Counted from the first letter of the stretch, positions 1,932 through 62,569 are shown. The stretch: DNA of 64,000 bases from Candidatus Aerophobetes bacterium Ae_b3b (GCA_005223085.1 NJBP01000002.1:2427-66426); one strand, 5' to 3'. A program made the numbers and translations. Notes: generated by a model from the sequence alone, not told the origin.

Positions 1932-3191
1932 TTACCACAATGCTGGGAGTTTAAAAACAGGTTTTCTTTCAGCCAGATATTTCTCGGTACAAAAAGGAGA
2001 GCCAAAACCGTACTTTTCAGCGCTCTCCATTAACTTATCATATATCTCCGGTCTGAAGATAAGCTTGGTGGGCTTCACCTTATCCTCTATCATACTTCTA
2101 ATTAATGTACCGCTGAATTTTTGTCTTTCCTGGCTATGACCACAGAGACCCGAGTAAGTGACTTCCCCACATATTGGGCAGTACCACCATTCAAGCACCC
2201 GTACTGGCTTAATTTTCAATTTATGTTGGGGGATCTGGTCGAATATGCGGTGAGCATCATAGGAGCCATAGTAGCTACCTACTCCAGCATGGTCTCGACC
2301 AAACATGTGATGAGTGCATCCTAAGTTCGTCCGCAGAATGGCGTGGAAAATAGCCTCTCTTGGCCCTGCGTAGCGCATATCCCACAGAGCAATGGTCACC
2401 ATATGAATATCATCTCTGAAGTACCTTGCCTCACAAAGTCGCTGATGACACAAAACAATGGCCTCATCTATATAATCACCGGTTCGCTTAGGTCCAATTA
2501 TACAGTTTACCAGGATCCCTGTCTTTAGCTTCTCTACGGGAAGTTCTCCATTTGCAGAAAACCAAGCTCCCTTCATTAACCATTCATGCCCACTATGCGG
2601 CACATTCCTGGTTTGATGGGCTACTACTCTTTCCCAACCGTTTTCAACTATTCTCTTTCGCAGTTGCCTTGGCGTATACCAGAATCTATCAAAAGGGGGC
2701 TGGAACTCGGGGGGGTTCACCAAAGCAATCTTCCCCCCTAAGAAAGTATTCTCCAATCCCCTAAGCATTCTTACTCCAGGGTGTCTCTCATCGGTTGTTC
2801 CCAGCACAGCCTCTGCTATTTTCGTTTTATTGAGTCTGAAAATATCTTCCACTTCCATCATCGCCAATGAAGAGGCAGTGTAAGTAAGGAGAATGGAATC
2901 TCCTTTCTTAATTTTCTTTGTTCTGATTTCCTCCTCTTTCACATCGAGAACAATGGGGATAGGCCAGAGCGTGCCGTCAGCCAAGGTCATCCTTTCGCAT
3001 ACCGCATCAACCTCTTCCTTACCCATAAAACCCTCTAGGGGGGTAAAAAAACCGTAGGCGATGTTGATGCATTCTCTCGCACATCGTCCACTGACGGGAA
3101 TTTGCTTCAACTTTCTAATCTTTTCTGTTACTTCAGACTCGGGTATCACCCTTTCTCTAATCTCGCGGTTACCATGCCCCTCATAGTTCAT
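1932..3191 (-). CDS. sat: sulfate adenylyltransferase (ATP sulfurylase), Zn-ribbon-containing type
   Basis: QTRN(VPHSGHE) and GRDHAG motifs, PUA-like N-terminus (FTPLEGFM, LADGTLWPIPI). C-terminal CPICGEV-x8-CGH resembles the Cys3His zinc site described for Thermus Sat. Confidence 0.9.
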   Translation of the reverse strand: MNYEGHGNREIRERVIPESEVTEKIRKLKQIPVSGRCARECINIAYGFFTPLEGFMGKEEVDAVCERMTLADGTLWPIPIVLDVKEEEIRTKKIKKGDSILLTYTASSLAMMEVEDIFRLNKTKIAEAVLGTTDERHPGVRMLRGLENTFLGGKIALVNPPEFQPPFDRFWYTPRQLRKRIVENGWERVVAHQTRNVPHSGHEWLMKGAWFSANGELPVEKLKTGILVNCIIGPKRTGDYIDEAIVLCHQRLCEARYFRDDIHMVTIALWDMRYAGPREAIFHAILRTNLGCTHHMFGRDHAGVGSYYGSYDAHRIFDQIPQHKLKIKPVRVLEWWYCPICGEVTYSGLCGHSQERQKFSGTLIRSMIEDKVKPTKLIFRPEIYDKLMESAEKYGFGSPFCTEKYLAERKPVFKLPALW

Positions 3192-3266: not shown

Positions 3267-4355
3267 TTAAGTAAATTTGCCCTTCATATCCTGTAGGCCT
3301 TCATGTTCCGGACCATATCGGTATGCTCTGGGGATAATTCTGTTATGTCCATAAACCGGATCGGACGAGGCAGAGAAGGGATTAACGAATTCCCAAACGA
3401 TCCGTCCTGATTTCATTACCTCAAAGATTCGTCCTGTCGCTGCCTCGCATATCAAAGTATTATCATTGGGTAGCCTCTGACAACTAGACATGTAGGCACT
3501 ATAAAAAGCCATCCAAGGGTCATCCTTATATTCCCACACCATTTTATTGGTAGCGGGATTTACCTCCAAAACGCGAGAGTACCCTTCAGAAATATGGACA
3601 CAGTGCGTCCCATTATCAAATAACAGAATGTTCCCATTTTCGAGGATGGTAGCACTATTTTGATGACCTAGCTCTCCTCCCGAACCCCACCGCCATTTGA
3701 TATCTCCTGTAGATTTGCTGATGATACATATACTATTAAGTCGGGCGAAGCTAGCTAAGATATCCCCATTGGATAGGATGGCAAATGAATTAGCCTCGGT
3801 CCACTGGCTACGGGGACATAAGGAACAAATAATGTCCTTTTCTGGATCTAAGTGCTCGTATGCCAACCACTTCCAGACTATCTTACCACGCGGATTAACC
3901 TCTTGAAAAGAGTCACCCCACATAATTCCTTCCTTTTCAGTACCTAGTATACCGCCTTTGACTTTTGCAGCAATATCCTTGGGTACCTGAACCCATCTAA
4001 GTACCATAGTATTTCCATTGAACAGGCGGCAAAAACTATGGTGCAAATACCGGTCCTGGTAATTCCATACCACATTACCATTCCAATCTACTTCAAGTAA
4101 CTCTCCCCCGGCACCCTTAAAACTAGCCAACGGTCCGTTTTCTAGCTGCCCGGCATAAAGCAGATTGCCACTATTCAAAAGCACCCCGTACAACGCTGGT
4201 GGATATGGTACCTTCCATTGATGAACGACCCGTCCCTTCATATCAATTAACATCGTTTCCCTTATTCCCAAAGGAGTAAATAAGGTATACCCATTGTAAG
4301 CATTTGAATGAACATAGTGGGTAACCCCTTTCAAATTGGTTCGTGCAATGCCCAT
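3267..4355 (-). CDS. arylsulfotransferase (ASST)-like beta-propeller protein
   Basis: Repeated NGN/DNG blade motifs (ENGNILLFDNGTH, LSNGDIL, LPNDNTLICE) and an HH(S/D)F block. Start moved to MGIARTNLKG (RBS AGGAGG 7 nt upstream) by comparison with the paralog; the ORF-track N-terminus is an extension. Confidence 0.5.
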   Translation of the reverse strand: MGIARTNLKGVTHYVHSNAYNGYTLFTPLGIRETMLIDMKGRVVHQWKVPYPPALYGVLLNSGNLLYAGQLENGPLASFKGAGGELLEVDWNGNVVWNYQDRYLHHSFCRLFNGNTMVLRWVQVPKDIAAKVKGGILGTEKEGIMWGDSFQEVNPRGKIVWKWLAYEHLDPEKDIICSLCPRSQWTEANSFAILSNGDILASFARLNSICIISKSTGDIKWRWGSGGELGHQNSATILENGNILLFDNGTHCVHISEGYSRVLEVNPATNKMVWEYKDDPWMAFYSAYMSSCQRLPNDNTLICEAATGRIFEVMKSGRIVWEFVNPFSASSDPVYGHNRIIPRAYRYGPEHEGLQDMKGKFT

Positions 4356-4385
4356 TGGATCTCCTCCTTGCCCCATTAAAAATAT

Positions 4386-5558
4386 CTACGTAGCATCAGG
4401 TCCATATATTCCATTTAACCACTCAAATTTGTCAGGATCTAAGTTCTTTCCTATTAGCCCCTCATGTTCATGTCCGTAGCGGTAAGCTCGATAGATTAGG
4501 TTAGCCTGACCGTAAACCACAAAGGGGCCATAAAAGGGACTGATATACTCCCAAACTATCTCACAATCAGGAGTCGCCTCGAAAATACGACCTCCATGAG
4601 TCTCACATATCAAAGTATTCCCGTTTGACAGACGCTGGGCCCCCCCCATACCAAAGGCATAGAACTCCGACGGAGGGTCATCCTTATATTCCCACTCAAT
4701 TTTATTAGTAGCTGGATTAACCTCCAATACTCTAGAATAGTAATCCAGATCTTGGGTGAAAAAACGATGCGCTCCATTATCAAAGACTAAAATATTCCCA
4801 TTATCCAGCATAGTAGGCTCATGCTGGTGTCCCAATTCCTCGGGACCCCACCTCCAGGTGATCTTTCCCGTAGCTTTATCAATAATACAGATGGTATTAG
4901 TCTGGCGAAATGAGCCTAAGATATTTCCATCTGGTAGCACAGTACAACCATTCATATGAGTCCATTCTCCTCGATACTCCAGAGGGCAAATGACATCTAT
5001 CTCCGGATCTAGGTGTTCGTACGATAGCCACTCCCACACTACTTTACCCTCAGGAGTAACCTCATTAAGGGCATCAGCCCACATAACCCCCCCGCTCAAC
5101 TCTGTACCCGGGATACCACCTTTGACCTTACTTTTAATGTCATCAGGCACAGTTACGTATTTTATAAGCATAGTATTTCCATTTTCCATGCGGTAAAAGT
5201 CGTGATTAAATTGTGGTTCTTCGTACTTCAATACCAGATTATTATCCCAATCTACCTCTATTAAACACACGCCTCTATCTTGCTCATTTTGCTCGCAATC
5301 CTCACCAAAGAGGTAGGCAACCCCCGGTCCCATTATGCCCCCCGACTTAACACCTTGATAAACCAGATTACCATTAGTCAAAAACCGTGCAAAATTTGGT
5401 TTATACGGTTCTGTAGACCAATGGTGCACAATTCTACCCTGCATGTCGATCAGCCACGCATCATTGCCAAACATAGGCGTAAACAAAGTATACCCTTTAT
5501 ATGCCTTTGAAGGAACATAGTGGGTAACCCCCTTCAAACTGGTTCGTGCAATACCCAT
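4386..5558 (-). CDS. arylsulfotransferase (ASST)-like beta-propeller protein, tandem paralog
   Basis: Paralog of 3267-4355 (MGIARTSLKGVTHYV..., LDNGNILVFDNGAHR, NHDF). Start set at MGIART with RBS GGAGG upstream. Confidence 0.5.
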   Translation of the reverse strand: MGIARTSLKGVTHYVPSKAYKGYTLFTPMFGNDAWLIDMQGRIVHHWSTEPYKPNFARFLTNGNLVYQGVKSGGIMGPGVAYLFGEDCEQNEQDRGVCLIEVDWDNNLVLKYEEPQFNHDFYRMENGNTMLIKYVTVPDDIKSKVKGGIPGTELSGGVMWADALNEVTPEGKVVWEWLSYEHLDPEIDVICPLEYRGEWTHMNGCTVLPDGNILGSFRQTNTICIIDKATGKITWRWGPEELGHQHEPTMLDNGNILVFDNGAHRFFTQDLDYYSRVLEVNPATNKIEWEYKDDPPSEFYAFGMGGAQRLSNGNTLICETHGGRIFEATPDCEIVWEYISPFYGPFVVYGQANLIYRAYRYGHEHEGLIGKNLDPDKFEWLNGIYGPDAT

Positions 5559-5728
5559 TGGATTTCCTCCCTTCGTCAACCTGATTAAGAATCTTCTCGT
5601 ACCTCGTGTTACGACCAACACAAACTAGACACAGCCTTGACATAGGCTGTTGACATATCCTATCTCCTCCTTAAAAAGCCTCTTTTATGAGAAAGGGGAT
5701 TATTCTTGATTCCGCCTGATACTAAATT

Positions 5729-7204
5729 TCAATAACCTAAAAACTTGAGCCGAGAAGCTACTTTCTTGTCAGTCTCTTCGGGAGATGGCATTACCTCTTT
5801 TTTTACCATAGGTAGAATGGATGGCCTTTCCATATTTCTTGGGGTTGGTATGTCAAGAACATCCAGAACAGTCGGAGCAATGTTAAGTAATGATACTCCC
5901 TTAAGTTCCTTTCCCTCTGGGATACCTGGCCCAGTGATAACAAAGTAGCCACATAAACCATATGCCACGTCATGACAGTCTTTTGCAGTATCAAATGAAT
6001 ATATTCTCTCTTGGTCATGACCTACTAGCTCACTGGTACCTAATCGGCCTTCATCAAAGTCCACCAACAGGTCCGGACCGTAGCTTACGTAAGGACCAAA
6101 ACAAATATCACCGGGCTGCCACACCTGAGTGTTTAGAGGTTTTCCACCCTTATCGGGAATATCCTTTAGCTTAGCGGTCAATTCACCCAAGAATTTATCA
6201 TAGTCCTTGGGGTCAACAATTCCTTGCGGTTCCCTTCCCTTCATATTGAGGTATAACTTACCAGTATAACCCGTACTCCAGCATTTTGTCCTAGACCAGT
6301 CCACCTTAACATCCTTGAATGAGGTCGGCCTCTGTGGTTGCTCAAAGAGGCTCATATATCCCTCTTTCATTAGCCACTCATCAAGATTGATCCGTCCCTG
6401 AAGTTCTTTGGCACTATAGCCACTATAAATGAATAGTACGGTCTCTTTAGGTACGTTCTGATAGAGTTCTCCAATATTCTTATCAATCCAAAGGTAGTAA
6501 TCATGCAAAGCTCCTTCATAATGAGGATCAGGAGTGTACTGTCTATTTTGCGAATTAAAACCACCATAGAAAAGACTCAGCATCCGAGTACATCCCATTA
6601 CTGCCGTCATAACACAGTCACAATTTTTTTCATTAATAAAATACTTTGTCAATACGAAACGCTGCGAATCCATTTCGTAGATTTTTTGGAGCACCCGGCC
6701 CTTATCTACCTCCTTACCACCCACATCGGCCTCCGTCAGGTCAATAATATATTTCCCGACTAATTCATAAACCTCATCTTTAAGATTCTCGGGATAGGTA
6801 AAGCTAAGATCGAGGTTCGGAGTTATCAATCCAGAAATAACATAGCCTGCGGGAATTTTGGGAGAGGGCCAAGTAGCCGGGACATTAATCATCGCTACTC
6901 TCTGCATCTTTTTAGGAAGGATTGTGTATAGTAGATCAACCCTTCTTGTGACTTCGGAACTAACCACTTTTTTCTCACCATAAGAGAAATCATCCCTATA
7001 GGTAAAATCCCAGATTCCATAGGCTCCAGGGTTCCGACCAGATTGAGTGGATATCCACACTTGAGGGAGAGCCGGAGGAATTGCACTTTCTAAAACTCCC
7101 CAAATTCCCCTCTTCTGCATTTTCATCAAGTTAGGCAGCTCGTCCGCCCACTGCCTAAGAAACTCGGGACATAATCCATCTAAGCCCAGCAATACTACTC
7201 TTGC
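5729..7204 (-). CDS. AlkP-superfamily type I phosphodiesterase / nucleotide pyrophosphatase-like protein
   Basis: MARVVLLGLDGLCPEFL N-terminus (metal-ligand Asp block) and paralogy to 18279-20213. Start set at MARVV (RBS AGGAGG). The residue aligned to the NPP Thr nucleophile appears substituted (..PPALPQVW..). Confidence 0.55.
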   Translation of the reverse strand, partial: ARVVLLGLDGLCPEFLRQWADELPNLMKMQKRGIWGVLESAIPPALPQVWISTQSGRNPGAYGIWDFTYRDDFSYGEKKVVSSEVTRRVDLLYTILPKKMQRVAMINVPATWPSPKIPAGYVISGLITPNLDLSFTYPENLKDEVYELVGKYIIDLTEADVGGKEVDKGRVLQKIYEMDSQRFVLTKYFINEKNCDCVMTAVMGCTRMLSLFYGGFNSQNRQYTPDPHYEGALHDYYLWIDKNIGELYQNVPKETVLFIYSGYSAKELQGRINLDEWLMKEGYMSLFEQPQRPTSFKDVKVDWSRTKCWSTGYTGKLYLNMKGREPQGIVDPKDYDKFLGELTAKLKDIPDKGGKPLNTQVWQPGDICFGPYVSYGPDLLVDFDEGRLGTSELVGHDQERIYSFDTAKDCHDVAYGLCGYFVITGPGIPEGKELKGVSLLNIAPTVLDVLDIPTPRNMERPSILPMVKKEVMPSPEETDKKVASRLKFLGY

Positions 7205-7548
7205 CATAGACAGGCCTCCTAATTTCAGTAAGTCAGGAAGAGAAGTGCAACTTAAGGAAAAATTACTAAGCAGTCCTTCTCTCGTCTGAAGCATATTCGT
7301 AACTTTATTTTTACGAAAAAACCCTCGATCCCTGATTTCTCTAACAAAACTTTCACTCTCGCAGCATTGCCGAGCTTTTCCATATTCCTGTCGGTTATCA
7401 GTAAGGGCTTCTCACCAAATTCGATTGCTTCACTTCCCACTCTCCCAGTTCCAGTTGCTCTTCTTAATATTGATATTTGAAATATCTTTAAATTACTTCT
7501 GCTGTAGCCTTATCTTCGAGTTTACGAGTAAAGTGTCCATTACATCTT

Positions 7549-8373
7549 TTATATCTTTACGGCCCCCGCGGTAAGCCCTCTTACAAAATACTTCTGCAAT
7601 AAGAAAAAACCAATAATTAAGGGAAAACACACTATTACATCTATGGCCATAAGATCATTCCAAAATATATTATATTGACCTAACTTGGCACCTATAACTA
7701 CAGTTAGCATCCGTCGATTAGCAGAAGTAGTGAGTACAAGTGCAAATATATATTGGTTCCACGCAACCAAAAAGCCAAATAAAGCCGTAGCTATCATTCC
7801 AGGAAAAGATAATGGCAGAATTATTCGGAGAAAGGCTCCCAATCTTGAGCATCCGTCGATTAGCGCAGCATCATCCAGATCTACAGGTATATTGACAAAA
7901 AATCCTCTGAGTATAAGTGCACAAAAAGGTAAAGTAAATGTAAGATAGGTTAGCATGAGACCAGGATAGGTATCGTAAAGTCCAGTTCTCTTTAATATAA
8001 GATAATAGGGAAGGATTAAAAGAACAGGGGGTATCATCTGTGTGGAAAGCATATAGATAATAAATGTATTTTTACCCTTAAATTCGAATCGAGAAAGCCC
8101 GTATCCTGCCACTGCTGCTAAGAACACAGAAACTAATGCTACGGAAATGGAAACTATCACGCTATTAATAACAGCCTGCAGGAATGCCGGATCACTCAAT
8201 ACCCTTTCGAAAGCTCCGAAGGTTATCTTTTCTGGTACCCAACGAGGAGGAATGGTGAAGACTTCCTGCGCTTCCCTTACAGAAATTGTGCACATCCAAA
8301 ATATAGGAAATACTATAATTATAACTACTACAATACAACAGGTAAACCATACATATTTCTTAATATTCGTCAT
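7549..8373 (-). CDS. carbohydrate ABC transporter permease (MalG-like)
   Basis: Six TM segments and the EAA-loop region (DAALIDGCSRLGAFLRIILP). Confidence 0.85.
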   Translation of the reverse strand: MTNIKKYVWFTCCIVVVIIIVFPIFWMCTISVREAQEVFTIPPRWVPEKITFGAFERVLSDPAFLQAVINSVIVSISVALVSVFLAAVAGYGLSRFEFKGKNTFIIYMLSTQMIPPVLLILPYYLILKRTGLYDTYPGLMLTYLTFTLPFCALILRGFFVNIPVDLDDAALIDGCSRLGAFLRIILPLSFPGMIATALFGFLVAWNQYIFALVLTTSANRRMLTVVIGAKLGQYNIFWNDLMAIDVIVCFPLIIGFFLLQKYFVRGLTAGAVKI

Positions 8374-8403: not shown

Positions 8404-9288
8404 TCATTTTATTTCCCTGGGAACAGAAAGCTTTATGTAAACAATAGCAAAAGCAAGAGTAAACAAAAATGTCAATATTCCTTGTGCTGCGGCTCTTCCG
8501 AATCTTAAATCCTCAAAGGCAGTATAATAAATAAGCAAAGGTAAGTTTCGGGTAGCACCCGCGGGACCTCCCCCTGTAGTGAGGAAAATCAAGTCGAATT
8601 GTTTGAAAGACCAGATTGTATCTACCATACCCAAGGTAAGCAGACTGGGAACAATATAAGGTAAGGTAATATAGAAAAATTGCGTAACTTTACCTGCCCC
8701 ATCTATACTAGCTGCTTCGTAAAGTCGCTGAGGTATACTTTCCATCGAGGCTAAAATAATAACTACAAAAAAAGGCAAGATTCTCCACACATACAATACT
8801 ATTACTGATGGAAGGGTTAATTTATTATCTCCTAACCATATCCAAGGGTTCTTTAACAAACCAAGAGTCATAAGAATGCTATTGACAGCTCCAAAAGGAT
8901 GAAAAATAACGAGCCAAATAGAAGCAGCTACTGCCCCGGCTAAAAGCCAAGGTACTATGATAACAGCGCGAAAAATTCTTCTTATTCTTTCGAATCCCGC
9001 AAACCGCTGATTAAGTAATAGTGCTATGCTTACTCCTAAAACTAAATGTAAAAATACTGCACTTCCACTAAATACAATAGTTATTAGAAAGGAATTCCAA
9101 AATTCAGGTGTTTGTAAGATTTGTAAATAATTGGAAAACCCAATGAAACTCTGTGTTTCCTCAGGTAGATAGTATCTGCGAAATCCCAATAAAAGAACAT
9201 AACCAAGAGGTATAGTAGTGATCGCCACGAGGCACGCACCTACAGGAAATACGCTTATCCAACCCGTTGTTTTAGAGCTTAGTTTCAT
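8404..9288 (-). CDS. carbohydrate ABC transporter permease (MalF-like)
   Basis: EAASIDGAGKVTQFFYITLP EAA motif and multi-TM profile. Confidence 0.85.
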   Translation of the reverse strand: MKLSSKTTGWISVFPVGACLVAITTIPLGYVLLLGFRRYYLPEETQSFIGFSNYLQILQTPEFWNSFLITIVFSGSAVFLHLVLGVSIALLLNQRFAGFERIRRIFRAVIIVPWLLAGAVAASIWLVIFHPFGAVNSILMTLGLLKNPWIWLGDNKLTLPSVIVLYVWRILPFFVVIILASMESIPQRLYEAASIDGAGKVTQFFYITLPYIVPSLLTLGMVDTIWSFKQFDLIFLTTGGGPAGATRNLPLLIYYTAFEDLRFGRAAAQGILTFLFTLAFAIVYIKLSVPREIK

Positions 9289-9699: not shown

Positions 9700-11016
9700 T
9701 TACTCCTCCCCGTAGGCCTTTTCAAGAACTTCATTATATTTAGCAGCTGCTGCATCCAGGGCTTCCTTCGCTGACTCTTCCCCCAGAAATACCTTATGAA
9801 TTGCAGATACCACTATTCGGTTCATTTGAATCTCCTGAGGAATAGACCCAGTCTGGAAAAAGTTATTCGTGGAGCCAAATGTTTCAAAAAATCCCTCGTA
9901 TTCACTCTTGAACTCAGGGAAATCTGCAATTTTCTTAGCCAGGGGCATGTATCCGCTTTTGTACCAGTAATAAATTGTATCGTCGCTTGTCATGTACTTA
10001 ATGAACTCCCATGCCTCGCTTTTATGCTTTGATTGTTTGGGGATACCCAAGTTTCCCCCATTATATACCGTTCCTATCGCTTCATCCATTGGCACAGGAG
10101 CATTTTTAATGTTCAACTCAGGAGCTTTTGCACCGTACACTGCCCAACACCAAGCTCCATCCAGAACCATAGCAGCCTTCTCGCCTGCAACCATATCACG
10201 CATATCTGCTGCTGTATAAGTTATAGAGCCAGGCATAGTGTATCCTTTTTTCTCCATATTCACCATAAAATCAACAGTCTTCACCCCCGGTTCTTCATTG
10301 AACACTGCCTTTTTATTTCTAACATATTGGCCACCCATCGAATACAATAAAGGTCCAATAGTACAAACGTTAGCTCCAGCTACATTCTTTTCGCTAAGGC
10401 AGAAAACAGTTGCGTAACGAAATCTAGCAGGTTCTGCAAGCTTCTTGCTCACTTCAACAAAGTCTTCCAAAGTTGCAGGAGGAAGTAGGCCTTTTTTCGC
10501 AAATATGTCTGCGTTATACACCAGGCCTGCAACTCCCCCCCATAAAGGAAATACGTATGTTTTTCCACGAAAGGTACCTCGAGCTGCTTCAAAGAATTTA
10601 TTTTGAAGCTCTTGTGCGTACTCCGGCGATTCCTGGTTTAGATAAGGGTCCAGCGGTTCAATTAACCCAAGTGAAACAAATTCCCATAGCCAATTTCTAT
10701 TCACTGCCAATACATCAGGTAATCTCCCTGCTTGCCACATAGTGATTATTTTGTCGTGAGTGACCGGCCATGGATCAGTGATTTGTTTTACGTTAATATC
10801 TGGATGTTTTTTTTCGAATCCTTTAATTATATGCTCCATTACCCCTGGTTTAGCTTCTTGACTAACCCATTCATACCAGGTGAGGGTTATTTTTTCAGCA
10901 GCTGCAGTGCCAAAAGAAATCAATACCAGACAGAAACTTAATAAAATCCCAAAGCTCAACATCCCCATACTTCTTTGCTTTCCTCCATACATCTTGTTCC
11001 TCCTTACATAGTTCAA
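9700..11016 (-). CDS. ABC transporter extracellular solute-binding protein (family 1)
   Basis: N-terminal signal peptide (LSFGILLSFCLVLISFGTAAA) and SBP_bac_1-like sequence. Confidence 0.85.
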   Translation of the reverse strand: MNYVRRNKMYGGKQRSMGMLSFGILLSFCLVLISFGTAAAEKITLTWYEWVSQEAKPGVMEHIIKGFEKKHPDINVKQITDPWPVTHDKIITMWQAGRLPDVLAVNRNWLWEFVSLGLIEPLDPYLNQESPEYAQELQNKFFEAARGTFRGKTYVFPLWGGVAGLVYNADIFAKKGLLPPATLEDFVEVSKKLAEPARFRYATVFCLSEKNVAGANVCTIGPLLYSMGGQYVRNKKAVFNEEPGVKTVDFMVNMEKKGYTMPGSITYTAADMRDMVAGEKAAMVLDGAWCWAVYGAKAPELNIKNAPVPMDEAIGTVYNGGNLGIPKQSKHKSEAWEFIKYMTSDDTIYYWYKSGYMPLAKKIADFPEFKSEYEGFFETFGSTNNFFQTGSIPQEIQMNRIVVSAIHKVFLGEESAKEALDAAAAKYNEVLEKAYGEE

Positions 11017-11574: not shown

Positions 11575-12993
11575 CTACTCCACCAAAAGTGGGGTACAGC
11601 CGGGCTCACCCTTTAGCTTCCTTAAGAACTCTGGAACCTTGCCACCGGCATCGGCAATTGCCAGATCTTTCATCCGCTCACAGATGTGAGGATACTCTTG
11701 GGCAATATTTTTTTCCAGTTTGGGATCAGCCTCTAAATCATAAAGAAGGGGGCTTTCACCCCAAAGATAAGCGTTATACCAATAGTGTCTGTCACGAACC
11801 ATAACGAATGGTCCCCAGCCACAGGTAACATGATCGTATATCTCTTTTCCTTTGCCTAAGGCTAGAGGCCAAATATCTTTTCCATCCATGGGCTTTTCTG
11901 GCTCTATTCCTAATCTGGCAAGAATGGTGGCGGGTAAATCAAAGTTGTAAATTAGACTATCGCAGGTTGTACTTGCCCCTTCTGCTTCTGGATGGCGAAT
12001 TATCAAAACCAAATCACAAATCTCTCGGCTCATGGGATGGCCTTGCTTTCCGACTATGTTATACTCACCAATGCAATGCCCATGATCAGAGATGAGAGCA
12101 ATGAGAGTATTCTCCATTAATCCAAGATTTCTCATCTTCTCAATAAAATAACCTAGCCATCGGTCTACCAATGTTATCTCTCCGGCATAGTTTGCTCTAA
12201 GGCGTTTTAATACACGTGAGCTCAGTTGATCAACCGGACCATAAAGAGAGGATAAGAAGTCTATGGTATCATTATCAGCATCATAGAGTTTTCTATAAGA
12301 TTTAGGTGGATCCCAAGGCTCATGAGGATCAAAGGAATCAACCACGAGGAAGAACTTATCGGCATCTTGATTCCTCTCGAGCCAATTAGTAGCAGCTTTA
12401 AAAACCTGAGCAGGAAAATAATCCTCCTCACAATGTCTATCAGCCACATTAGTTAGATACTTGCCAACAAAATCTGTATAATTTCCAAATTTTTCTATTT
12501 TCCCAGATCCTCTTAACTTTGTTCTTAAATTTTCAGGTATGTGATTTTCAATCTCTTCCTCAGGTGGAGCAGGACCTGAGCGATAAGGATCATGTTCCTG
12601 TCCTCTTATCCAGACCCACTCATCAAAACCACGATGAAAGTTCATTGATGGCTTAAACTGATGGTAAGTGTCGGTTATGAATGCCGTGCGATATCCATGC
12701 TGCTGCAGAATCTCAGTGATAGTATCACGTTCTTCGGAGATAGGCCCCCAGCCAGGTGAACCAATAAAAAGGTTGCCCCTGGAAGCTTTATGACCTATGA
12801 AGGGAAAGATATGACAGCCGGTTTGTAGAACTCTTCGAACCTGTAAAGTAGGAAGTGATTCTGGATAAGCATGGGTGAAAAGTACCGACTCTTTAGTTAA
12901 GGAGTCAAGATAAGGTGTTTTAATCCACTTATTTCCATAACAGCCTACATGATCCTGTCTTAAGGTATCAATGATTATCAATACCACATTCAT
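11575..12993 (-). CDS. sulfatase-fold (AlkP superfamily) enzyme, Thr-x-x-x-R variant of FGly motif
   Basis: IIDTLRQDHVGCYG N-terminus. AYPESLPTLQVRRVLQTG aligns to AYxTSPVCSPSRAALLTG with Thr at the Cys position. No TM segment. Confidence 0.75.
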   Translation of the reverse strand: MNVVLIIIDTLRQDHVGCYGNKWIKTPYLDSLTKESVLFTHAYPESLPTLQVRRVLQTGCHIFPFIGHKASRGNLFIGSPGWGPISEERDTITEILQQHGYRTAFITDTYHQFKPSMNFHRGFDEWVWIRGQEHDPYRSGPAPPEEEIENHIPENLRTKLRGSGKIEKFGNYTDFVGKYLTNVADRHCEEDYFPAQVFKAATNWLERNQDADKFFLVVDSFDPHEPWDPPKSYRKLYDADNDTIDFLSSLYGPVDQLSSRVLKRLRANYAGEITLVDRWLGYFIEKMRNLGLMENTLIALISDHGHCIGEYNIVGKQGHPMSREICDLVLIIRHPEAEGASTTCDSLIYNFDLPATILARLGIEPEKPMDGKDIWPLALGKGKEIYDHVTCGWGPFVMVRDRHYWYNAYLWGESPLLYDLEADPKLEKNIAQEYPHICERMKDLAIADAGGKVPEFLRKLKGEPGCTPLLVE

Positions 12994-16974: not shown

Positions 16975-18282
16975 TTAGAAAGACCGACGATAAATTTGCT
17001 CCACATCTTCCTCAGTTGCTGGGACAGGATTCTTTTCTACACCTCTCCTCATAGTTTTAAACGCACCTTGGGCCATATTCGAAATCTTATTTTGATCGAT
17101 CTTCAATTGACTAAGATTTACTCTCAAACCCACCTTCTCCAGTAGCTCCTTTACTGCCTGGATACTCTTTTTTGCCTTCTCCTTAGTGCATTCACGTATC
17201 GATTGACCCATAGTTTTAGCTATCTCACAGTACTTATGCACAGTTTTTTTATCCCCGTTATCGATGTTAAACTCCATCACGTTAGAGGAGATGGCAGCTA
17301 AGGCCACCCCATGATCAACATTAGGATAATGTCCGCTTATCGGATGAGCCATAGCGTGGGGAAGAGCTGCAGATGCGACGGCAATAGCCCAACCAGCGTA
17401 GGTATCAGCGAGGGCCATGTTGAATCTTGCCTCCATGTTATCTCCTTCCCGGTAGGCTGCAGGAAGATAACTGAAGACAAGTTCAATCGCCTTCAAGCAG
17501 TAGCTATCTACAATAGGATTACCCTCCCTGGATACAAAAGCCTCCAAAACATGGGCCAAGGTATCAAATCCTGTACGGGCAGTTAGTTCTGGAGACATAT
17601 TTTTTGCTATATTTAAATCTACAATGGATACCCGGGGATACATATACTCTGAACCGAACCCTGGCTTTTCACACGTCTCAGGGTTGCTAATCACAGCATA
17701 TCTGGTTACATGACTTCCAGTACCCGACGTGGAAGTCACAGCAATTACGGGTAATGTGGCCTCGGTTATAGATAGTGGTTCATCCTGTGTTACCGAGAAA
17801 TCCCAGATAGAACAGGGGCTACTTTTAGAGTGCCCTGCCACTACTGCTATTACTTTTGCCGAATCCATAGCCGAACCTCCACCCATGCCCACTATCACCT
17901 CACACTGGTTTTGTAAAGCCAATTTAGCCCCTTCATCCACTATATCTACGGTGGGATTGGGTTCTACCTTCCCATAATGGAATACCTTAAGCCCTTCTTG
18001 CTCCAGATATTTTCTTGCTTTGTCCAAGAATCCCAATCTCTGCATGCTTTTTCTACCTGTAACCAGTAGGACAGATTTACCCAGTTTTCTTGTCTCTTTA
18101 CCGAGACTTTCCAGCGCTCCCTCTCCAAATATGAGGTTAGTTCGAGGAAATAGGTACCGAAATGTCATTTTCTTCTCCATCTGTAGTTTATGACTACTTT
18201 TGCTTACCCTGTCTTCTATATTTTCCAGCACTCCTTTACCAGACATTAACTCTGTTCTGGGTAGCAGATATTCAAAATTCAT
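16975..18282 (-). CDS. iron-containing alcohol dehydrogenase family protein
   Basis: GGGSAMDSAKVIAV and Fe-ADH His block (ALPHAMAHPISGHY). ATG overlaps the stop of the upstream NPP-like gene (ATGA). An alternative start is at M39 (18168). Confidence 0.85.
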   Translation of the reverse strand: MNFEYLLPRTELMSGKGVLENIEDRVSKSSHKLQMEKKMTFRYLFPRTNLIFGEGALESLGKETRKLGKSVLLVTGRKSMQRLGFLDKARKYLEQEGLKVFHYGKVEPNPTVDIVDEGAKLALQNQCEVIVGMGGGSAMDSAKVIAVVAGHSKSSPCSIWDFSVTQDEPLSITEATLPVIAVTSTSGTGSHVTRYAVISNPETCEKPGFGSEYMYPRVSIVDLNIAKNMSPELTARTGFDTLAHVLEAFVSREGNPIVDSYCLKAIELVFSYLPAAYREGDNMEARFNMALADTYAGWAIAVASAALPHAMAHPISGHYPNVDHGVALAAISSNVMEFNIDNGDKKTVHKYCEIAKTMGQSIRECTKEKAKKSIQAVKELLEKVGLRVNLSQLKIDQNKISNMAQGAFKTMRRGVEKNPVPATEEDVEQIYRRSF

Positions 18283-20213
18283 TCTTCTTGCTCCACTACA
18301 TCGTAAAGTACTCGCCCCTCTGCATTTCCCGGTGGGTGTATGCCTACAAGATAAGCTACAGTTGGTGTCACATCTATAGTTCTCGCTGGAACCTTACGTC
18401 GATATCCCTTTTTAACACCTGGACCCTTTATGAAAAGAATTGCTTTCATCGTCCCCAAGTTCTGCCTAGAAGACGGAAGATAGGTATGGTGGACGCCAGC
18501 GAAGGGATAAATGCCTTCCTCAGACTCATAGGGAGGATCCTCAATAATAGGCAGTCCTTTAGTGAGTATCCAAGCTGTCTCATCGTTGTACTTTGGATTT
18601 AGAGTATATACGATATCTCCCACTCTATCTCCGTGCTGACCAAAAAACGCGGCCTCTTCCTTCTTCAAGATCATATTTACGACATTCTCTCTAGTTTCTG
18701 GATCTTTGAGATTTCGGAAAAGGTCGATAACCTTCTCTCTTATCTTCTCGTAATCTTTAGGGTCTACAACCCCTCCTTTTTCTCGTCCGGCGAGGTTAAC
18801 ATAAATATACGAACCAAAGGGAGAAAAGACTTTAGTTTTGGACCAGTCAACTTTCAGGTTACCATCCTCAGTCTCTTTGTAAGCTATAAGACCTTCTCTC
18901 GCCAAAAAGTTATTGCAGTGGAATACCTTCCTTGGAGCCATATGTCCATGGTCTGAGACAACTAAGATAAGGGCCTCTTCTCCAGCTGCTTTCATAAGTC
19001 TTCCTAAGTAGACATCCGCCATCTGATAGACTCTACGGATGACCTCTTCACATTCTGTTGCCCTTTGCTCCTTGTAGGCAGAACTTTCCGGGTCCATTCC
19101 TCCAAGATAGCAGTGATCAGTGTAATCTATTCCGTGCCACTGGGCAAAGAGCATATCCCAGTCCTTATTCTTCACAAGATACTCTCCTGCCTCTGCCAAC
19201 CAGCTCATTTGATTCTCCAGCTCCTCTAGATATGTTTTTGAATCTATCCATCCTCCCAATATAGGACTGTAAATATCACAGAGAAGCTGATACGGTCGGC
19301 CGATATGCTCTGTGAGCTCTCTGGCAAGACTATCTGGATAAGTCCACCCCGTGGAGGGAAAGATCTGGCTAAAGTAGAGACGAAACCTTTTCGCATCCTT
19401 GGAAAGCTCAATGAGTTTCATACGAAAGTTCCCTTCCTCTTTTCCTTTACTGGTGGTAAATTCTGCCTTCAAAAAGTTGCTCCACTCCCCTTCAGTTATG
19501 CTACATAAAGCTTTTTCTATATCTTTTTCCTCTGAGAGGAAAAATCTGTCGTAACCCTCACCTTTGCTATCTATAACCAGAGCATAAAATGCTTTCTCTT
19601 CTCCCCCCGGAGGACGGATCTTTAGTATGGTCTCTAGCGGAGGAGAGTTTGAAGAAGGCCTGTTTCCCCATCTCTGCGCCTCCTTAAACTCTACCTTATA
19701 GGCACAGCTTATCTCCTTAGGTCCTGCCCCATAGGCTTCCATGTTTCTTTCTCGCATCTTCTCTGTGGAAAACCCAAGTCTAGGAGCAATTTGGAAAGGG
19801 TTCCAATCTGGATTTCCCACTCCTTCAACCTGTAGACCTTCCTTTATAGTTGGAGGCCAGGAGGCTGGGTAACGCAAGAGAATTACCTTCTTTCCCTGTC
19901 TTTCTGCTGCGTTCCATAGGTACTCTGCCTGACATCTTTCGGTGGTGAAAGACTGAAACCTCTCAGAAAGGGAAGTTCCGGGAAGATGAAGAGTCATCTC
20001 CACAATACCGTGAGTACCTACGTTGGCTCCTGTGGCAATACAGGTCCAGTTCATAGCTGTACCTGTGGGAATAGCAGGAAAAGTTTCTGAGGTCACTCCC
20101 TCTTCCATAAGGCGCTTCATGTTGGGAAGATGACCTTCCTTCACAAATCTTTCCACTAAGTTCAAATTCGCAGAGTCGAGTCCTAGTAGTATACATTTTT
20201 TTACGCGTGCCAT
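18279..20213 (-). CDS. AlkP-superfamily type I phosphodiesterase / nucleotide pyrophosphatase (NPP)-like protein
   Basis: ILLGLDSANLNL and FPAIPTGTAMNWTCIATGANVGTHGI match the NPP PTxTFPNHYTxVTGxxPxxHGI nucleophile block (Thr). Confidence 0.7.
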   Translation of the reverse strand: MARVKKCILLGLDSANLNLVERFVKEGHLPNMKRLMEEGVTSETFPAIPTGTAMNWTCIATGANVGTHGIVEMTLHLPGTSLSERFQSFTTERCQAEYLWNAAERQGKKVILLRYPASWPPTIKEGLQVEGVGNPDWNPFQIAPRLGFSTEKMRERNMEAYGAGPKEISCAYKVEFKEAQRWGNRPSSNSPPLETILKIRPPGGEEKAFYALVIDSKGEGYDRFFLSEEKDIEKALCSITEGEWSNFLKAEFTTSKGKEEGNFRMKLIELSKDAKRFRLYFSQIFPSTGWTYPDSLARELTEHIGRPYQLLCDIYSPILGGWIDSKTYLEELENQMSWLAEAGEYLVKNKDWDMLFAQWHGIDYTDHCYLGGMDPESSAYKEQRATECEEVIRRVYQMADVYLGRLMKAAGEEALILVVSDHGHMAPRKVFHCNNFLAREGLIAYKETEDGNLKVDWSKTKVFSPFGSYIYVNLAGREKGGVVDPKDYEKIREKVIDLFRNLKDPETRENVVNMILKKEEAAFFGQHGDRVGDIVYTLNPKYNDETAWILTKGLPIIEDPPYESEEGIYPFAGVHHTYLPSSRQNLGTMKAILFIKGPGVKKGYRRKVPARTIDVTPTVAYLVGIHPPGNAEGRVLYDVVEQEE

Positions 20214-20471: not shown

Positions 20472-21845
20472 CTACCTCACTGAAGTGTGAGATAACTCAT
20501 ACTGAAGCTGCAACATCTTTGTTTTCTGGGAGAAGGTTCTGTTTATCTCTTTTACTTTAAGGGTGAAATACCTGCCAAGATGGGATAAAAACTCCTCTAC
20601 TTTTTCCGGATACTCGTCGATGAGGTTTTTTGTTTCTTTAGAATCCCCCTTTAAGTTATAAAGTTCATTTTTCTCCCCTTCAGGGTGAACAAGTAAGCTC
20701 CACTCTTTATCTCGGATGCACCGATGATATGATTCATGGTAACCGGTTATGATAAAATCTCTTATCTTCTCCTTTTTTCCCCTAACAACGGGCCAGAAGC
20801 TTTTCCCGGACATAGCCTGGGTCTCTTTTTTGAGATCCATTGCCTCCAGGATGGTAGGAAGAACATCAGGCATTTGAATGAGAGTATCAATCCTTTTCCC
20901 TGCATAAAGTCCCTCAGGAGGATGAATGAAAAGAGGTATTCTTATAAGCTCACCGTATAGATTATCCGGGGTCTTCATTATGGAGCCATGATCTCCATGA
21001 GGATGTCCATGATCGGAGAGGAGTGCTATAAGAGAGTTATCATAAAGACCACAATCTTTTATCTTCTCTAAAAGGTATCCCACCCACTTATCCACAAAGC
21101 TTACCTCTCCTGCATATAGAGCTTTCACATATTTTAGCTCCTCATCACTCATCCAGTCAACTTTTCCATATTGGGGATGGATGAGTTTGGGACCTTCATA
21201 ATTAGGATTGGTATACATCTTATCAAAAGGAGAAGGAGGGTCCCAGGGCTCATGGGGATCAAAGGAGTCCACCCAGAGAAAGATCTTTTCCTCACCTTTA
21301 TTGCGTTCCAGCCACCTTACCGCCTCCTGCATGACCTGGGCGGCAAAATAGTCTTCTTCTTTTTGCCAATGTTCGGTATTTTTCAAGTACTGCTCAAGCA
21401 TTCCCTCCACAGGATCGCCTTTCATGGCTGGCTTTATATAACCATTGATATTCTTATTTAAAGGGCCTGACACATAGGAGTCTGCCTCCTGTCCCCTTAT
21501 CCAACGAAAGCAGCTAAATCCTCGGTGAAAGTTCATGTCAGGTTTAAATAAATGGTAGGTGTCAGCAATCAAGGCTGAGGTGTAGCCGTACTCTCTCAAT
21601 ATCTCTGAGATAGTTACATCCTCTTTGGTTAAGGGTTGCCAGGGTCGGTAGGGAAGGCTACTACATCCTGTGAAAAGCTCAGTTCTAGCCGGAATGGTGG
21701 GAAGACCTTCGGTGTAAGCCTCTTCAAAGAGGATACTCTCCTTAGCAAATTTATCTATATTGGGCGTCTTTATCCATGTATTCCCATAGCATCCCAGATG
21801 ATCCTGCCTCAAACTATCCAGCATAATCACAATAAGGTTCATCAA
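20472..21845 (-). CDS. sulfatase-fold enzyme, T-x-P-x-R variant (paralog of 11575-12993)
   Basis: MLDSLRQDHLGCYG N-terminus. AYTEGLPTIPARTELFTG carries Thr-Ile-Pro-Ala-Arg where sulfatases carry Cys/Ser-x-Pro-x-Arg. Confidence 0.75.
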   Translation of the reverse strand: MMNLIVIMLDSLRQDHLGCYGNTWIKTPNIDKFAKESILFEEAYTEGLPTIPARTELFTGCSSLPYRPWQPLTKEDVTISEILREYGYTSALIADTYHLFKPDMNFHRGFSCFRWIRGQEADSYVSGPLNKNINGYIKPAMKGDPVEGMLEQYLKNTEHWQKEEDYFAAQVMQEAVRWLERNKGEEKIFLWVDSFDPHEPWDPPSPFDKMYTNPNYEGPKLIHPQYGKVDWMSDEELKYVKALYAGEVSFVDKWVGYLLEKIKDCGLYDNSLIALLSDHGHPHGDHGSIMKTPDNLYGELIRIPLFIHPPEGLYAGKRIDTLIQMPDVLPTILEAMDLKKETQAMSGKSFWPVVRGKKEKIRDFIITGYHESYHRCIRDKEWSLLVHPEGEKNELYNLKGDSKETKNLIDEYPEKVEEFLSHLGRYFTLKVKEINRTFSQKTKMLQLQYELSHTSVR

Positions 21846-32017: not shown

Positions 32018-33361
32018 GTGAAAAGAGTTTTTTTGATGACCGATCGAGAGAAAAGCGTCTGGGAAGAGCTTCTATCCAAGCTAGAGAAAAAACTCAAGCC
32101 ACAGAACTTTAAGACCTGGTTTAAACCCACCCAATTATATTCAGTTACCTCAGAAAAGCTGACCATTATGGTTCCCAATGATTTCTTTAAAAAATGGCTA
32201 GATAGGTACTATATGGGAATGATAAGAAGAGAGATTGCCAAGATTAGTGGGCATGAAATGGAGGTAGATTTTATTCTTCCTCCAAAGTACAACAATATCA
32301 AAAAGAGAAAAAATGTTGGCTTTAAGAAAAAACGTTCTGTTTCCCGGTTAAACCCTAGATTTCACTTCAATAGCTTTGTGGTAGGAAATAATAACCGATT
32401 AGCCCATGCGGCGGCTCTGGCAGTAGCTCAATCTCCTGCGCGTGCTTACAACCCTTTGTTTATCTATGGGAAGGTAGGGTTGGGAAAGACTCACCTCTTG
32501 CAAGCTATCGGTCACTATATTACGGAAAACAGTGAATTAACCTTTACCTATCTATCTTCTGAACAATTTACCAATGAATTAATAAATGCCATTAGGGATG
32601 ATAAAACAACTGCTTTTAGAAGAAGGTACAGAAATACCGATGTTCTGCTGGTGGATGATATTCACTTCCTGGCCGGGAAAGAGAGAACTCAGGAGGAGTT
32701 TTTTCATACTTTTAATGCCTTACATGAAGCCCACAAACAGATAGTTCTTTCAAGTGATAGACCCCCTATAGAGATTCCTACCTTAGAGAAAAGGCTTCAA
32801 TCACGTTTTGAATGGGGCCTTATTGCTGATATTCAGTCTCCAGACCTAGAAACGAGGATTGCTATTTTAAAAAAGAAAGCAGAAATCGAAAATATGGAGC
32901 TTCCTGATGAAGTGGCTACGTTTATTGCTGAGAGAATAAAAACTAATATTCGTAAGCTAGAGGGCTGTCTGGTAAGAATAACTGCTCATTCCTCTCTATT
33001 CAAAGAAAAAATAGACATGAATTCAGTTAAGGAAATCTTAAAAGGCATTCTTCCTGAAGAAAAACCCAGACCGATTACGGTAGAGTTGGTCCAAAAAACA
33101 GTTAGTAAATACTATAAGATTAAAGAATCAACAATTAAAGGGAAAAAGAGAAGTAGATCTATTGCTTTTCCCAGACAAATAGCTATGTACCTGTGCCGGG
33201 AGCTCACCGAGGATTCTTTTCCAGAAATTGGAGCAAAATTTGGCGGCAAAGATCACACAACGGTCATGTACGCCTACAGAAAGATAGTCGAACAGGCTAA
33301 GAAAGATGAGGTTTTAAGTAATGAACTAAAAGAACTAGAGAACATACTAAAAACCTCTTAA
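32018..33361 (+). CDS. dnaA: chromosomal replication initiator protein DnaA
   Basis: AAA+ Walker A GKVGLGKTHLL, DnaA box-binding C-terminus (AMYLCRELT, KFGGKDHTTV). Confidence 0.95.
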   Translation: MKRVFLMTDREKSVWEELLSKLEKKLKPQNFKTWFKPTQLYSVTSEKLTIMVPNDFFKKWLDRYYMGMIRREIAKISGHEMEVDFILPPKYNNIKKRKNVGFKKKRSVSRLNPRFHFNSFVVGNNNRLAHAAALAVAQSPARAYNPLFIYGKVGLGKTHLLQAIGHYITENSELTFTYLSSEQFTNELINAIRDDKTTAFRRRYRNTDVLLVDDIHFLAGKERTQEEFFHTFNALHEAHKQIVLSSDRPPIEIPTLEKRLQSRFEWGLIADIQSPDLETRIAILKKKAEIENMELPDEVATFIAERIKTNIRKLEGCLVRITAHSSLFKEKIDMNSVKEILKGILPEEKPRPITVELVQKTVSKYYKIKESTIKGKKRSRSIAFPRQIAMYLCRELTEDSFPEIGAKFGGKDHTTVMYAYRKIVEQAKKDEVLSNELKELENILKTS

Positions 33362-58023: not shown

Positions 58024-58224
58024 TGCCTTCTCCCTTCCTTTTATTCTCTGTATCTAACGGTGCTAACCTACATGCCTCATCCTTCTGAGGGTACTCCTCA
58101 GTTATTCAAAAAGCTACTTCCTATAAAAAACCCCAGCCTTCCCGATAAAGAAAGCTGGGGTTCTATTGTTCGACAAAAACCCTCATTACCTTTTATGCGA
58201 AGAAGGAGGGTACACACACATAGG

Positions 58225-58425: not shown

Positions 58426-58509
58426 GGACATTAAAGAGCAGATATTTTATAATACTGTATCAAGAATTTTTGTCAAATTGAACGTTCCAAGATTCCCTCA
58501 TTTAGTGAA

Positions 58510-62557: not shown

Positions 62558-62569
62558 GGAGACGATTTG

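Follow-up and report, generated by a model that had tools for sequence, protein, structure and literature searches.

A probable cytoplasmic, propeller-only arylsulfate sulfotransferase and its degenerate paralog in a conserved gene cassette with ATP sulfurylase and a CysD-like protein

Cpz4, the sulfotransferase of the caprazamycin antibiotic cluster of Streptomyces, is a protein of 472 residues whose aryl sulfate donor is provided by a type III polyketide synthase (PKS) and a sulfotransferase dependent on 3′-phosphoadenosine 5′-phosphosulfate (PAPS). The arylsulfate sulfotransferase (ASST) of Escherichia coli, AssT, is reported as a homodimer. In AssT of strain CFT073 (PF05935; PDB 3elq), a six-bladed propeller, His436 is transiently sulfated during catalysis, and the sulfuryl group is coordinated by His252, His356, Asn358, Arg374, and Thr501 (PMC13426309). 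The physiological role and natural substrates of such PAPS-independent aryl sulfotransferases (ASTs) are poorly understood (PMC13426309). Here, two tandem genes, A and B, are described in a stretch of 64,000 nucleotides from Candidatus Aerophobetes bacterium Ae_b3b (GCA_005223085.1, NJBP01000002.1:2427-66426; the whole of this stretch is called “the window” hereafter). In all likelihood, B encodes a cytoplasmic, propeller-only, PAPS-independent enzyme of the ASST superfamily that has retained the sulfo-histidine, A encodes a conserved paralog without the sulfo-histidine, probably a non-catalytic partner, and the pair forms the front end, facing the substrate, of a cytoplasmic module that is conserved.

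An alignment of the two products over 371 columns gives 53% identity (E = 7e-133), and the stop of B is separated from the start of A by 30 nt. They share the N-terminal start MGIART(S/N)LKG, and a Shine-Dalgarno (SD) sequence lies 5–7 nt 5′ of each ATG, GGGAGGA for B (ATG at 5558) and AGGAGGAG for A. Both ASST models of Pfam are matched: PF05935 gives 76.8 bits for B and 63.2 bits for A against a gathering score of 24.2, and PF14269 gives 59.8 and 59.1 bits, respectively, against 27. A model of B predicted by AlphaFold2 (AF2) from 30 homologs is an all-beta propeller (pLDDT 88.7, pTM 0.90). When this model was compared with the PDB by Foldseek, Cpz4 (9kf4, 9kf6) came out on top (E = 3e-19, TMq 0.66), with an E-value better than that of the following match by seven orders of magnitude; AssT 3elq was outside the top 50. 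A profile of the family finds Cpz4 at E = 1e-16 and 3elq at E = 1e-7. The family is a large one, with 12,177 representatives of 50%-identity clusters at E ≤ 1e-3, and the NCBI name for such propellers is already “aryl sulfotransferase”. The closest named relative, with 86% identity, is labeled Candidatus Aerophobetes bacterium Ae_b3b.

The propellers might alternatively be generic scaffolds of the PQQ/BamB-like or NHL-like type with a superficial likeness to ASST. Weak matches to PQQ_2 and Mala_s_1 are found, and many other propellers appear lower in the Foldseek list. This assignment is effectively refuted, since the PQQ_2 matches are below threshold while both ASST models exceed theirs by 30–50 bits, the top two structural matches belong to an ASST-type enzyme, and a QH...FDNG block aligns with both AssT and Cpz4. 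Cpz4 is the best relative in structure as well as in sequence; it is PAPS-independent, has the QH(D/E)...FDN block in common with B, and receives a dedicated aryl sulfate donor from its own pathway (PMC13426309). It is, however, only 18% identical to B, which has an ATP sulfurylase (Sat), a CysD-like protein, and importers as partners, while a PKS and a kinase for adenosine 5′-phosphosulfate (APS) are absent.

Active-site residues separate B from A. In the profile alignment, the family block QH(E/D)P...GNILVFDNG corresponds to Q435-H436 of AssT, and the H436N variant of AssT (4p04) aligns at the same place; the block EWTHxN corresponds to His356 and Asn358, and SFR to Arg374. His201, Asn203, Arg218, and His246 of B are therefore the equivalents of AssT His356, Asn358, Arg374, and His436 (PMC13426309). 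The alignment spans AssT residues 220–525 and is weak at the N- and C-terminal ends, where AssT His252 and Thr501 have no mapped counterpart. The QH(D/E)...FDN block with the catalytic His is common to B, AssT, and Cpz4, and the position of His246 is occupied by His in 101 of 118 clade members. Judged from these residues, B is a credible His-type sulfuryl transferase. In A, the equivalent positions are Glu201, Asn, Ala218, and Asn246, so that three of the four mapped residues are absent, and Cys265 is found where B has Arg and where Arg265 is otherwise common. Having lost the catalytic His and two more active-site residues, A is probably not a transferase itself. The same substitutions (E201/N246/C265) occur in eight orthologs that have diverged to about 70–80% identity (L081, L082, L084–L088, and the window), which indicates that A has been maintained in its degenerate form and is not in decay.

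The N-termini of A and B are short, with about 19 residues ahead of the first conserved strand. In the model of B, residues 10–14 already form a strand, in a stretch with a pLDDT of 97, so this N-terminus cannot be a cleaved signal peptide. No hydrophobic N-terminal segment was found in 117 of the 120 closest homologs of B. AssT, by contrast, is a periplasmic protein of 571 residues with a signal peptide, a Dsb partner, and an N-terminal beta-sandwich, all three of which are missing from both A and B; B is cytoplasmic and consists of the propeller only. The classical periplasmic AssT/AstA type was rejected for B because of its N-terminus without hydrophobic segment, its length (390 vs. 571 residues), and the absence of any dsb gene from the 64-kb window. 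A minority of the clade is exported: an ASST-like paralog directly upstream of the PP-loop gene in locus L175 (7582–8832) has a clear signal peptide (MKKLKKLSLIVVVLGCLAFG...), its neighbor has none, and three further homologs (P0037, P0061, and P0062) resemble the exported one. A preliminary description of this DNA, made from the sequence, had seen in A and B two ASST-like beta-propellers of about 50% identity, starting at MGIARTxLKG with a good ribosome-binding site and lacking signal peptides, and all of this is borne out by the reading of both starts, by the significant Pfam matches, with which the fold and the catalytic His agree, and by the N-termini of the proteins and their homologs. 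Its suggestion to look for conserved catalytic His residues had a divided outcome: His246 of B aligns with AssT His436 and with the QHD block of Cpz4, whereas A has Asn246, as does the inactive H436N variant of AssT (4p04) at the equivalent site.

The gene arrangement around the pair is conserved. Metagenome loci with relatives of B (80 loci, 49–99% identity) were fetched, and the window proteins were mapped onto them; the inspected sequence amounts to 64 kb of this genome and 10–20 kb per relative. A recurrent order was found, in which one to four ASST-like copies are followed by sat, a sulfatase-fold gene of the Thr type (with Thr at the nucleophile site), and a gene for a PP-loop protein. 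Of the ASST-anchored loci, 34 have a length of 10 kb or more. The sulfatase-fold gene was found in 21 of these, the PP-loop gene in 20, sat in 15, and a permease of the TauE family in 12; 25 have at least one of sat, the sulfatase-fold gene, and the PP-loop gene. In 19 of the 22 sat-bearing loci, the distance from sat to an ASST-like gene of the same strand is no more than 205 nt. This arrangement recurs in related loci far above chance level. In contig L088, which is 99% identical to the window and extends beyond its left edge, a DUF6955 gene adjoins the PP-loop gene. When loci are anchored on the PP-loop protein, a core is recovered that consists of the Thr-type sulfatase-fold protein (400–403 residues), the PP-loop protein, Sat, DUF6955, TauE (or a DASS/CitMHS permease), and an AF_1016 membrane protein, and anchoring on DUF6955 recovers the identical core, including that of an Acetomicrobium-labeled contig. 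ASST-like genes accompany it in L162–L165, L168/L169, and L175; because the core also exists without them, the propellers are a frequent but optional front end and not its center. The module as a whole comprises this core, an importer, and ASST-like propellers, tailed AlkP-superfamily enzymes, or both. In L173 and L174, a core of this ASST-less kind lies divergently beside a glycyl-radical enzyme and its activase.

Outside this clade the linkage is not seen. In 80 more distant relatives from genomes of isolates and from MAGs (35–52% identity; Streptomyces, Rhodospirillales, Nostoc, Dehalococcoidia), no sat is nearby and the neighbors are heterogeneous, so the linkage is a property of one clade; the clustering of neighbors in this set was spoiled by shadow open reading frames (ORFs) of high-GC genomes. 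Within the clade, the type of importer varies by lineage, with TRAP transporters in 27 of the 80 loci, a CUT1-type ABC importer in the window, and other ABC or MFS transporters elsewhere. Regulators of the GntR, IclR, and LacI families are common in the cassette loci, and no exporter of a product was found in the cassette neighborhoods examined. The ASST family itself is known. In full-text searches of the literature, however, we could not find a description of the cassette, of the linkage of this cytoplasmic clade with Sat and the CysD-like protein, of DUF6955, or of the C-terminal tail described below, and exact-sequence look-ups in contigs gave no match for the window Sat or for P0002.

Table 1. 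Paralogs A and B and neighboring features, with coordinates counted from the first nucleotide of the window
Feature	Coordinates	Strand	Length	Basis
Paralog B, probable cytoplasmic propeller-only enzyme of the ASST superfamily	4386–5558	minus	390 aa	Pfam, AF2, Foldseek, profile alignment
Paralog A, degenerate ASST-like propeller	3267–4355	minus	362 aa	Identity to B, Pfam, SD and ATG at 4355
Sat, ATP sulfurylase of the homo-oligomeric type	1932–3191	minus	419 aa	PF14306 (PUA_2) and PF01747
Thr-type sulfatase-fold protein, cytoplasmic	640–1854	minus	404 aa	PF00884, 135.8 bits
CysD-like PP-loop protein (PAPS_reduct family)	1–605, cut by window edge	minus	about 201 of 280 residues	Translation; TGGKDS motif
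PF01663 protein (NPP-like, AlkP superfamily)	5729–7294, likely start Met at 7207	minus	493 aa	PF01663, 72.8 bits
CUT1-type ABC importer	permeases 7549–8373 and 8404–9288; solute-binding protein 9700–11016	minus		SBP_bac_1, 136.8 bits
Second Thr-type sulfatase-fold gene	11575–12993	minus		PF00884

In the window, the sat, sulfatase-fold, and PP-loop genes are co-directional with A and B, with gaps of 30–170 nt (Table 1). Sat scores 492.6 bits on NF003166 (cut-off 387), the model of the bifunctional enzyme is matched only at its positions 26–388 of 572, and neither Pfam nor NCBIfam finds an APS kinase domain in the protein. Homologs of E. coli CysC, CysN, and CysI are absent from the window and from 84 related loci; the only matches to CysD and CysH there are the PP-loop proteins, and no CysH bearing the Cys was found. 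Annotation of the rest of the window by Pfam gave no sulfate-reduction gene, and no apr, dsr, or sox gene was seen among the recurrent neighbor families. An operon for assimilatory sulfate reduction at this locus was rejected on these grounds. The preliminary description had placed sat without an APS kinase, a Thr-variant sulfatase-fold gene, and a TGGKDS PP-loop gene beside the propellers and had taken them as a sign of sulfuryl transfer or sulfate recycling in preference to plain assimilation. The genes are where it put them, neither a CysC homolog nor a complete cysC-cysH-cysI pathway came to light in the 64-kb window or the 84 loci, and the preference, with its still hypothetical chemistry, gains support from the way in which sat and the gene of the PAPS-reductase family stay with the propellers in related loci.

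The related possibility is that no relay between these enzymes exists at all: the ASST-like and AlkP-superfamily enzymes would remove sulfate or phosphate from imported esters, and Sat and the CysD-like protein would serve ordinary assimilation with cysC, cysH, and sir elsewhere in the genome. Sat is indeed a standard enzyme, operons for the scavenging of sulfate esters are well known, and the view is confined to the lengths of sequence given above. We nevertheless regard this possibility as unlikely. The close spacing of sat and ASST-like genes in 19 of 22 loci is kept among lineages that share only about 50% identity, and cysC, cysN, cysH proper, or cysI occurs in none of the 84 loci. Moreover, a His-type transferase is not a hydrolase and requires an acceptor, sulfur can hardly be limiting in sulfidic sediments and digesters, and the tail shared by the cassette proteins would be left without a role.

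The full-length PP-loop protein (280 residues) is available from L088 (10010–10852) and ends in ...GRRQDKEKTMERLRKLGYM. It matches PF01507 with 87.7 bits, falls short of the CysD models (75 vs. a cut-off of 195, and 47 vs. 397), and is below the cut-offs of the CysH models. It is highly conserved, with 66–98% identity among the 120 closest relatives, which include those from Aerophobetes, Dehalococcoidia, and Atribacteria. CysD-like features are the PAPS_reduct fold, the PP-loop motif, and the C-terminal ER.GR..D....ME..+..GY(F/M); indeed, in a MAFFT alignment with the translated cysD of E. coli MG1655, the C-terminus ...ER.GRRQDKEK..MERLRKLGYM is homologous to that of CysD. On the other hand, the insertions of CysD are absent, the protein has a Cys-rich insertion of its own, no CysN accompanies it in the window or the 84 loci, and it stands beside an ATP sulfurylase of the other type. 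Membership of CysD was therefore rejected on the scores and the missing CysN partner. CysH has the same fold; in a MAFFT alignment with the E. coli protein, however, its nucleophile Cys (ECGLH) aligns with a Gly, and the role of a CysH-type reductase was rejected accordingly. To judge from these comparisons, the PP-loop protein is a stand-alone CysD-like enzyme that handles adenylyl or sulfuryl groups without the reductase Cys and without a CysN partner. The insertion, which is absent from CysD and CysH, was observed in L088 10010–10852 and in homologs P0121–P0240; it contains a Cys/His-rich stretch (WLCNFDVLKCCQSHLG), only partly retained in some Aerophobetes sequences (WLCNFDVLRACLSKLG), and may be a metal or redox site.

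By sequence, the PP-loop protein comes closest in the PDB to the PAPS-reductase-like domain of human FAD synthase (8rom, E = 4e-11), with CysD (1zun) and APS reductase (2goy) behind it. This ranking is the first point in favor of chemistry on phosphoryl or nucleotidyl groups, in which the PP-loop protein would be an FAD-synthase-like adenylyltransferase, the Thr-type AlkP-superfamily proteins phosphodiesterases or phosphotransferases, and the propellers recruits for a non-sulfate substrate. The AlkP-superfamily proteins add to it. It is established for NPP, LtaS, and EptA that Thr nucleophiles of this superfamily usually act on phosphate esters, the formylglycine (FGly) motif is missing from all three sulfatase-fold proteins of the window, and the core exists without ASST-like genes. 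Such a function is, however, quite improbable, as Sat and the TauE-family (or DASS/CitMHS) permease occur in most of the loci anchored on the PP-loop protein or DUF6955, the C-terminus of the PP-loop protein is CysD-like, and B retains the His, Asn, Arg, and His set that binds sulfuryl in AssT.

The first sulfatase-fold protein has ...GPYTQASFPAILTS... at the C/S-x-P-x-R site, with Thr at the position of the nucleophile (YTQASFP), and was rejected as an FGly (type I) sulfatase for this reason; it is far under the cut-off of all NCBIfam sulfatase models. Its gene is a constant neighbor of the PP-loop gene: the two adjoin in ASST-anchored loci that carry the cassette and in seven of eight arrangements anchored on the PP-loop protein or DUF6955. 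A third PF00884 protein is encoded at 20472–21845 (minus strand); like the two of Table 1, it has no signal peptide and has Thr at the FGly site (YTQASFP, TLQVR, and TIPAR in the three proteins). From these sites, the three are unlikely to be formylglycine sulfatases, and neither of the maturases anSME and FGE is encoded in the 64-kb window. The PF01663 protein upstream of the pair, whose start was inferred from the 493-residue ortholog in L162, has no sequence relative in the PDB; orthologs are found upstream of the B-A pair in 10 loci.

The PF01663 protein also leads to a feature common to several cassette proteins. Its C-terminus (5729–5752) is ...SRLKFLGY, and all the orthologs upstream of the pair carry the same kind of tail. 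Among the 594 complete ORFs of 80 loci, 76 end in (L/M/I/V)GY with at most two further residues: 75 of these belong to the 178 proteins of four cassette families, and one to the approximately 416 other ORFs. By family, such ends are found in 43 of 118 ASST-like, 20 of 24 PP-loop, 10 of 10 PF01663, and 2 of 26 sulfatase-fold proteins. The logo is R-L-x-x-L-G-Y; the three larger sets (ASST-like, PP-loop, and PF01663) show no variation at R, the second L, G, and Y. Examples are the PP-loop protein of L088 (tail at 10790–10852), P0094 among many ASST-like homologs, and the proteins at L170 3777–5126 and L173 9862–11124; RLxxLGY is also found on the sulfatase-fold proteins of 420–449 residues in ASST-less loci. 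B has a different conserved segment, ...WLNGIYGP..., at its C-terminus, and A is likewise without the tail. Among the 80 distant genome relatives, three ASST-like proteins have it, two of them beside cassette genes. The presence of the tail on ASST-like or AlkP-superfamily proteins showed no significant association with sat or PP-loop genes in the same locus (Fisher p = 0.19), in a close clade with many incomplete contigs, and a PDB search with the 48-residue tail of the PP-loop protein gave nothing relevant. In the model of a tailed homolog, a terminal helix (residues 374–386, pLDDT about 83) follows a linker of lower confidence (pLDDT 62–70), which suggests a docked helix on a flexible tether. 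The tail may be a docking peptide, a lid, or an arm whose Tyr carries the sulfuryl group.

These parts can be combined, tentatively, into a catabolic relay of sulfuryl groups from an imported aryl sulfate to APS and, most likely, to ATP through Sat, every chemical step and the direction being inferred. In the first step, the sulfuryl group would move from an imported aryl sulfate ester to His246 of B by the ping-pong mechanism known from AssT and Cpz4. The group would then pass to a phenolic acceptor inside the module, for which the invariant terminal Tyr of the RLxxLGY tails is the best candidate, or, alternatively, straight to AMP bound by the PP-loop protein. The CysD-like protein would form APS, Sat would work in the ATP-forming direction (APS + pyrophosphate (PPi) → ATP + sulfate), and sulfate would leave through the TauE-type permease. 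The net reaction would be ArOSO3− + AMP + PPi → ArOH + ATP + sulfate, in which the energy of the aryl sulfate bond is conserved and not lost by hydrolysis. The roles suggested here for the tail and for the pairing of A with B are likewise hypothetical. It is compatible with these steps that ASTs accept tyrosine-containing peptides and that some bacterial sulfotransferases sulfate 3′-phosphoadenosine 5′-phosphate or nucleoside triphosphates from p-nitrophenyl sulfate (PMC13426309).

Two known enzymes offer models for parts of the relay. The idea of the Tyr tail is modeled on CysH, which has the same fold as the PP-loop protein: the mobile C-terminal tail of CysH carries the sulfuryl group as Cys-S-SO3−, a precedent for transfer from APS to a flexible C-terminal arm. 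The two proteins differ in that the PP-loop protein has Gly at the Cys position, the Tyr lies about 17 residues further on, and no thioredoxin-type chemistry is implied. The Sat of sulfur oxidizers belongs to the same enzyme family as the window Sat and, working in the ATP-forming direction, is a precedent for the gain of ATP from APS at substrate level. The APS there comes from sulfite via AprAB, while the source proposed here is a sulfate ester. As for energetics, the equilibrium from PAPS to aryl sulfate is only about 4e3, so that the conversion of aryl sulfate into APS would cost only about 20 kJ/mol. The Sat reaction, with about −46 kJ/mol, could pull the formation of APS, and the whole sequence would be possible with aryl esters, though not with alkyl ones. 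A bolder form of the scheme is a doubtful one: substrate-level phosphorylation driven by an ester bond, in which the group would move from sulfo-His to a protein-tethered Tyr O-sulfate on RLxxLGY arms and on to AMP/APS and ATP, the arms being a new kind of group carrier.

The catabolic direction is favored because it gives every conserved part a job and because the context looks catabolic, with importers, local regulators, and no product exporter. The same parts can also be read in reverse, as an APS-dependent, PAPS-independent sulfation in two steps. TauE/DASS would import sulfate, Sat would make APS, and the CysD-like protein would sulfate its own terminal Tyr or that of a partner; from this Tyr-bound aryl sulfate, the ASST-like enzyme would sulfate an imported or endogenous acceptor, for leaving-group activation or phenol detoxification. 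The reverse is the chemically easier course. By established chemistry, all steps past Sat are thermodynamically downhill, and this reading accounts for an aryl-sulfate-dependent enzyme beside Sat without a pathway for a small-molecule donor. Furthermore, the closest solved relative, Cpz4, works in two such steps, by way of an aryl sulfate carrier that serves this purpose (PMC13426309), and L172 adds genes for a Sulfotransfer_3-fold protein and a Na_sulph_symp transporter. The sulfating direction is, nonetheless, somewhat unlikely: the genes are surrounded by importers and catabolic-type regulators, with neither an exporter nor a downstream user of a sulfated product; each turnover would cost ATP → AMP + PPi in energy-limited fermenters; no pyrophosphatase is there to pull Sat; and the sulfatase and ASST folds are both known catalysts of sulfate-ester cleavage.

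Several observations weigh against the catabolic relay. Arg218 of B, the equivalent of AssT Arg374, is present in only 64% of the clade. The core occurs without an ASST-like gene in L170–L174 and L176–L178, where a sulfatase-fold protein of 420–449 residues stands beside it, and in one of these loci, L172, the neighbors are the PAPS-type Sulfotransfer_3-fold gene and the Na_sulph_symp transporter, which point to the sulfating direction. Thr-type sulfatase-fold proteins stand in for ASST in such loci, and their likely chemistry is phosphoryl transfer, or else the formation of an alkyl sulfate intermediate that would be thermodynamically unable to feed APS. A source of PPi is not encoded in the cassette. 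Sat and the CysD-like protein look redundant, as both are able to interconvert ATP and APS. As to the tail, its Tyr lies about 17 residues past the nucleophile site of CysH, a similar tail is present on E. coli CysD, which is not a sulfotransferase, and RLxxLGY may be only a lid or a docking peptide. The ASST-less cores, the Thr-type AlkP-superfamily enzymes, and the tail of genuine CysD tell against the sulfating relay as well.

There are further observations on the surroundings. Orthologous sets of solute-binding protein and permeases, corresponding to the CUT1-type importer of the window, lie beside the cassette in L082 and L084–L088. Between the PF01663 gene and B, a 15-codon ORF (MSTAYVKAVSSLCWS) with a strong SD sequence overlaps a hairpin (5609–5656, minus strand). 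It is conserved only in the near-identical contigs L081 and L088 and is probably not a meaningful gene. A scan for promoters and terminators found no enrichment over shuffled sequences and was uninformative, and Rfam gave no riboswitch near the cassette. Bases 1–29,400 of the window are one minus-strand island with many AlkP-superfamily enzymes, in which an aldo-keto reductase, an IclR regulator, and three CUT1 ABC sets are also encoded. A second PF01663 protein of the island (644 residues, without an LGY tail) is encoded by a gene whose stop overlaps the start of an Fe-alcohol dehydrogenase gene by 4 nt (16975–20213, minus strand). Farther away, two cobalamin riboswitches (RF00174) at 58206–58428 (minus) and 62559–62743 (plus) score 105.9 and 89.5 bits; one is upstream of a set of TonB-dependent receptor, TonB, and TPR genes, and the other upstream of cobU. 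An ORF of 727 residues at 44215–46398 (minus), with diaminopimelate decarboxylase (Orn_Arg_deC_N/C) and DAP epimerase domains, is apparently a LysA-DapF fusion. The dnaA gene (32018–33361, plus) lies at a sign change of the GC skew, which is negative up to about 32 kb and positive at 32–36 kb, and the window probably spans the replication origin. With dnaA and a TonB-dependent receptor, it is read as part of a diderm bacterial chromosome near the origin.

These comparisons give a large cytoplasmic clade of ASST-like proteins a conserved genetic context in anaerobes of sediments and digesters (Aerophobetes, Dehalococcoidia, and Atribacteria-, Planctomycetota-, and Acetomicrobium-like lineages), where Sat, a CysD-like protein, a TauE-type permease, and importers are the neighbors. 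The cassette, which is found again in many anaerobes without cultured members, explains an “orphan” sat in genomes of subsurface organisms that do not reduce sulfate, where the gene is usually taken for an assimilatory one. A short C-terminal Tyr motif extends across four enzyme folds as a possible docking peptide or sulfuryl-carrying arm. If the ordinary reading is true, the outcome is still a useful correction of annotation: the names given to paralog A and to the Thr-type “sulfatases” probably do not match what these proteins do. The hypothesis offered here is that sulfate esters and APS are connected without the help of an APS kinase; if it is true, organosulfates may be a source of ATP for energy-starved organisms of the subsurface.

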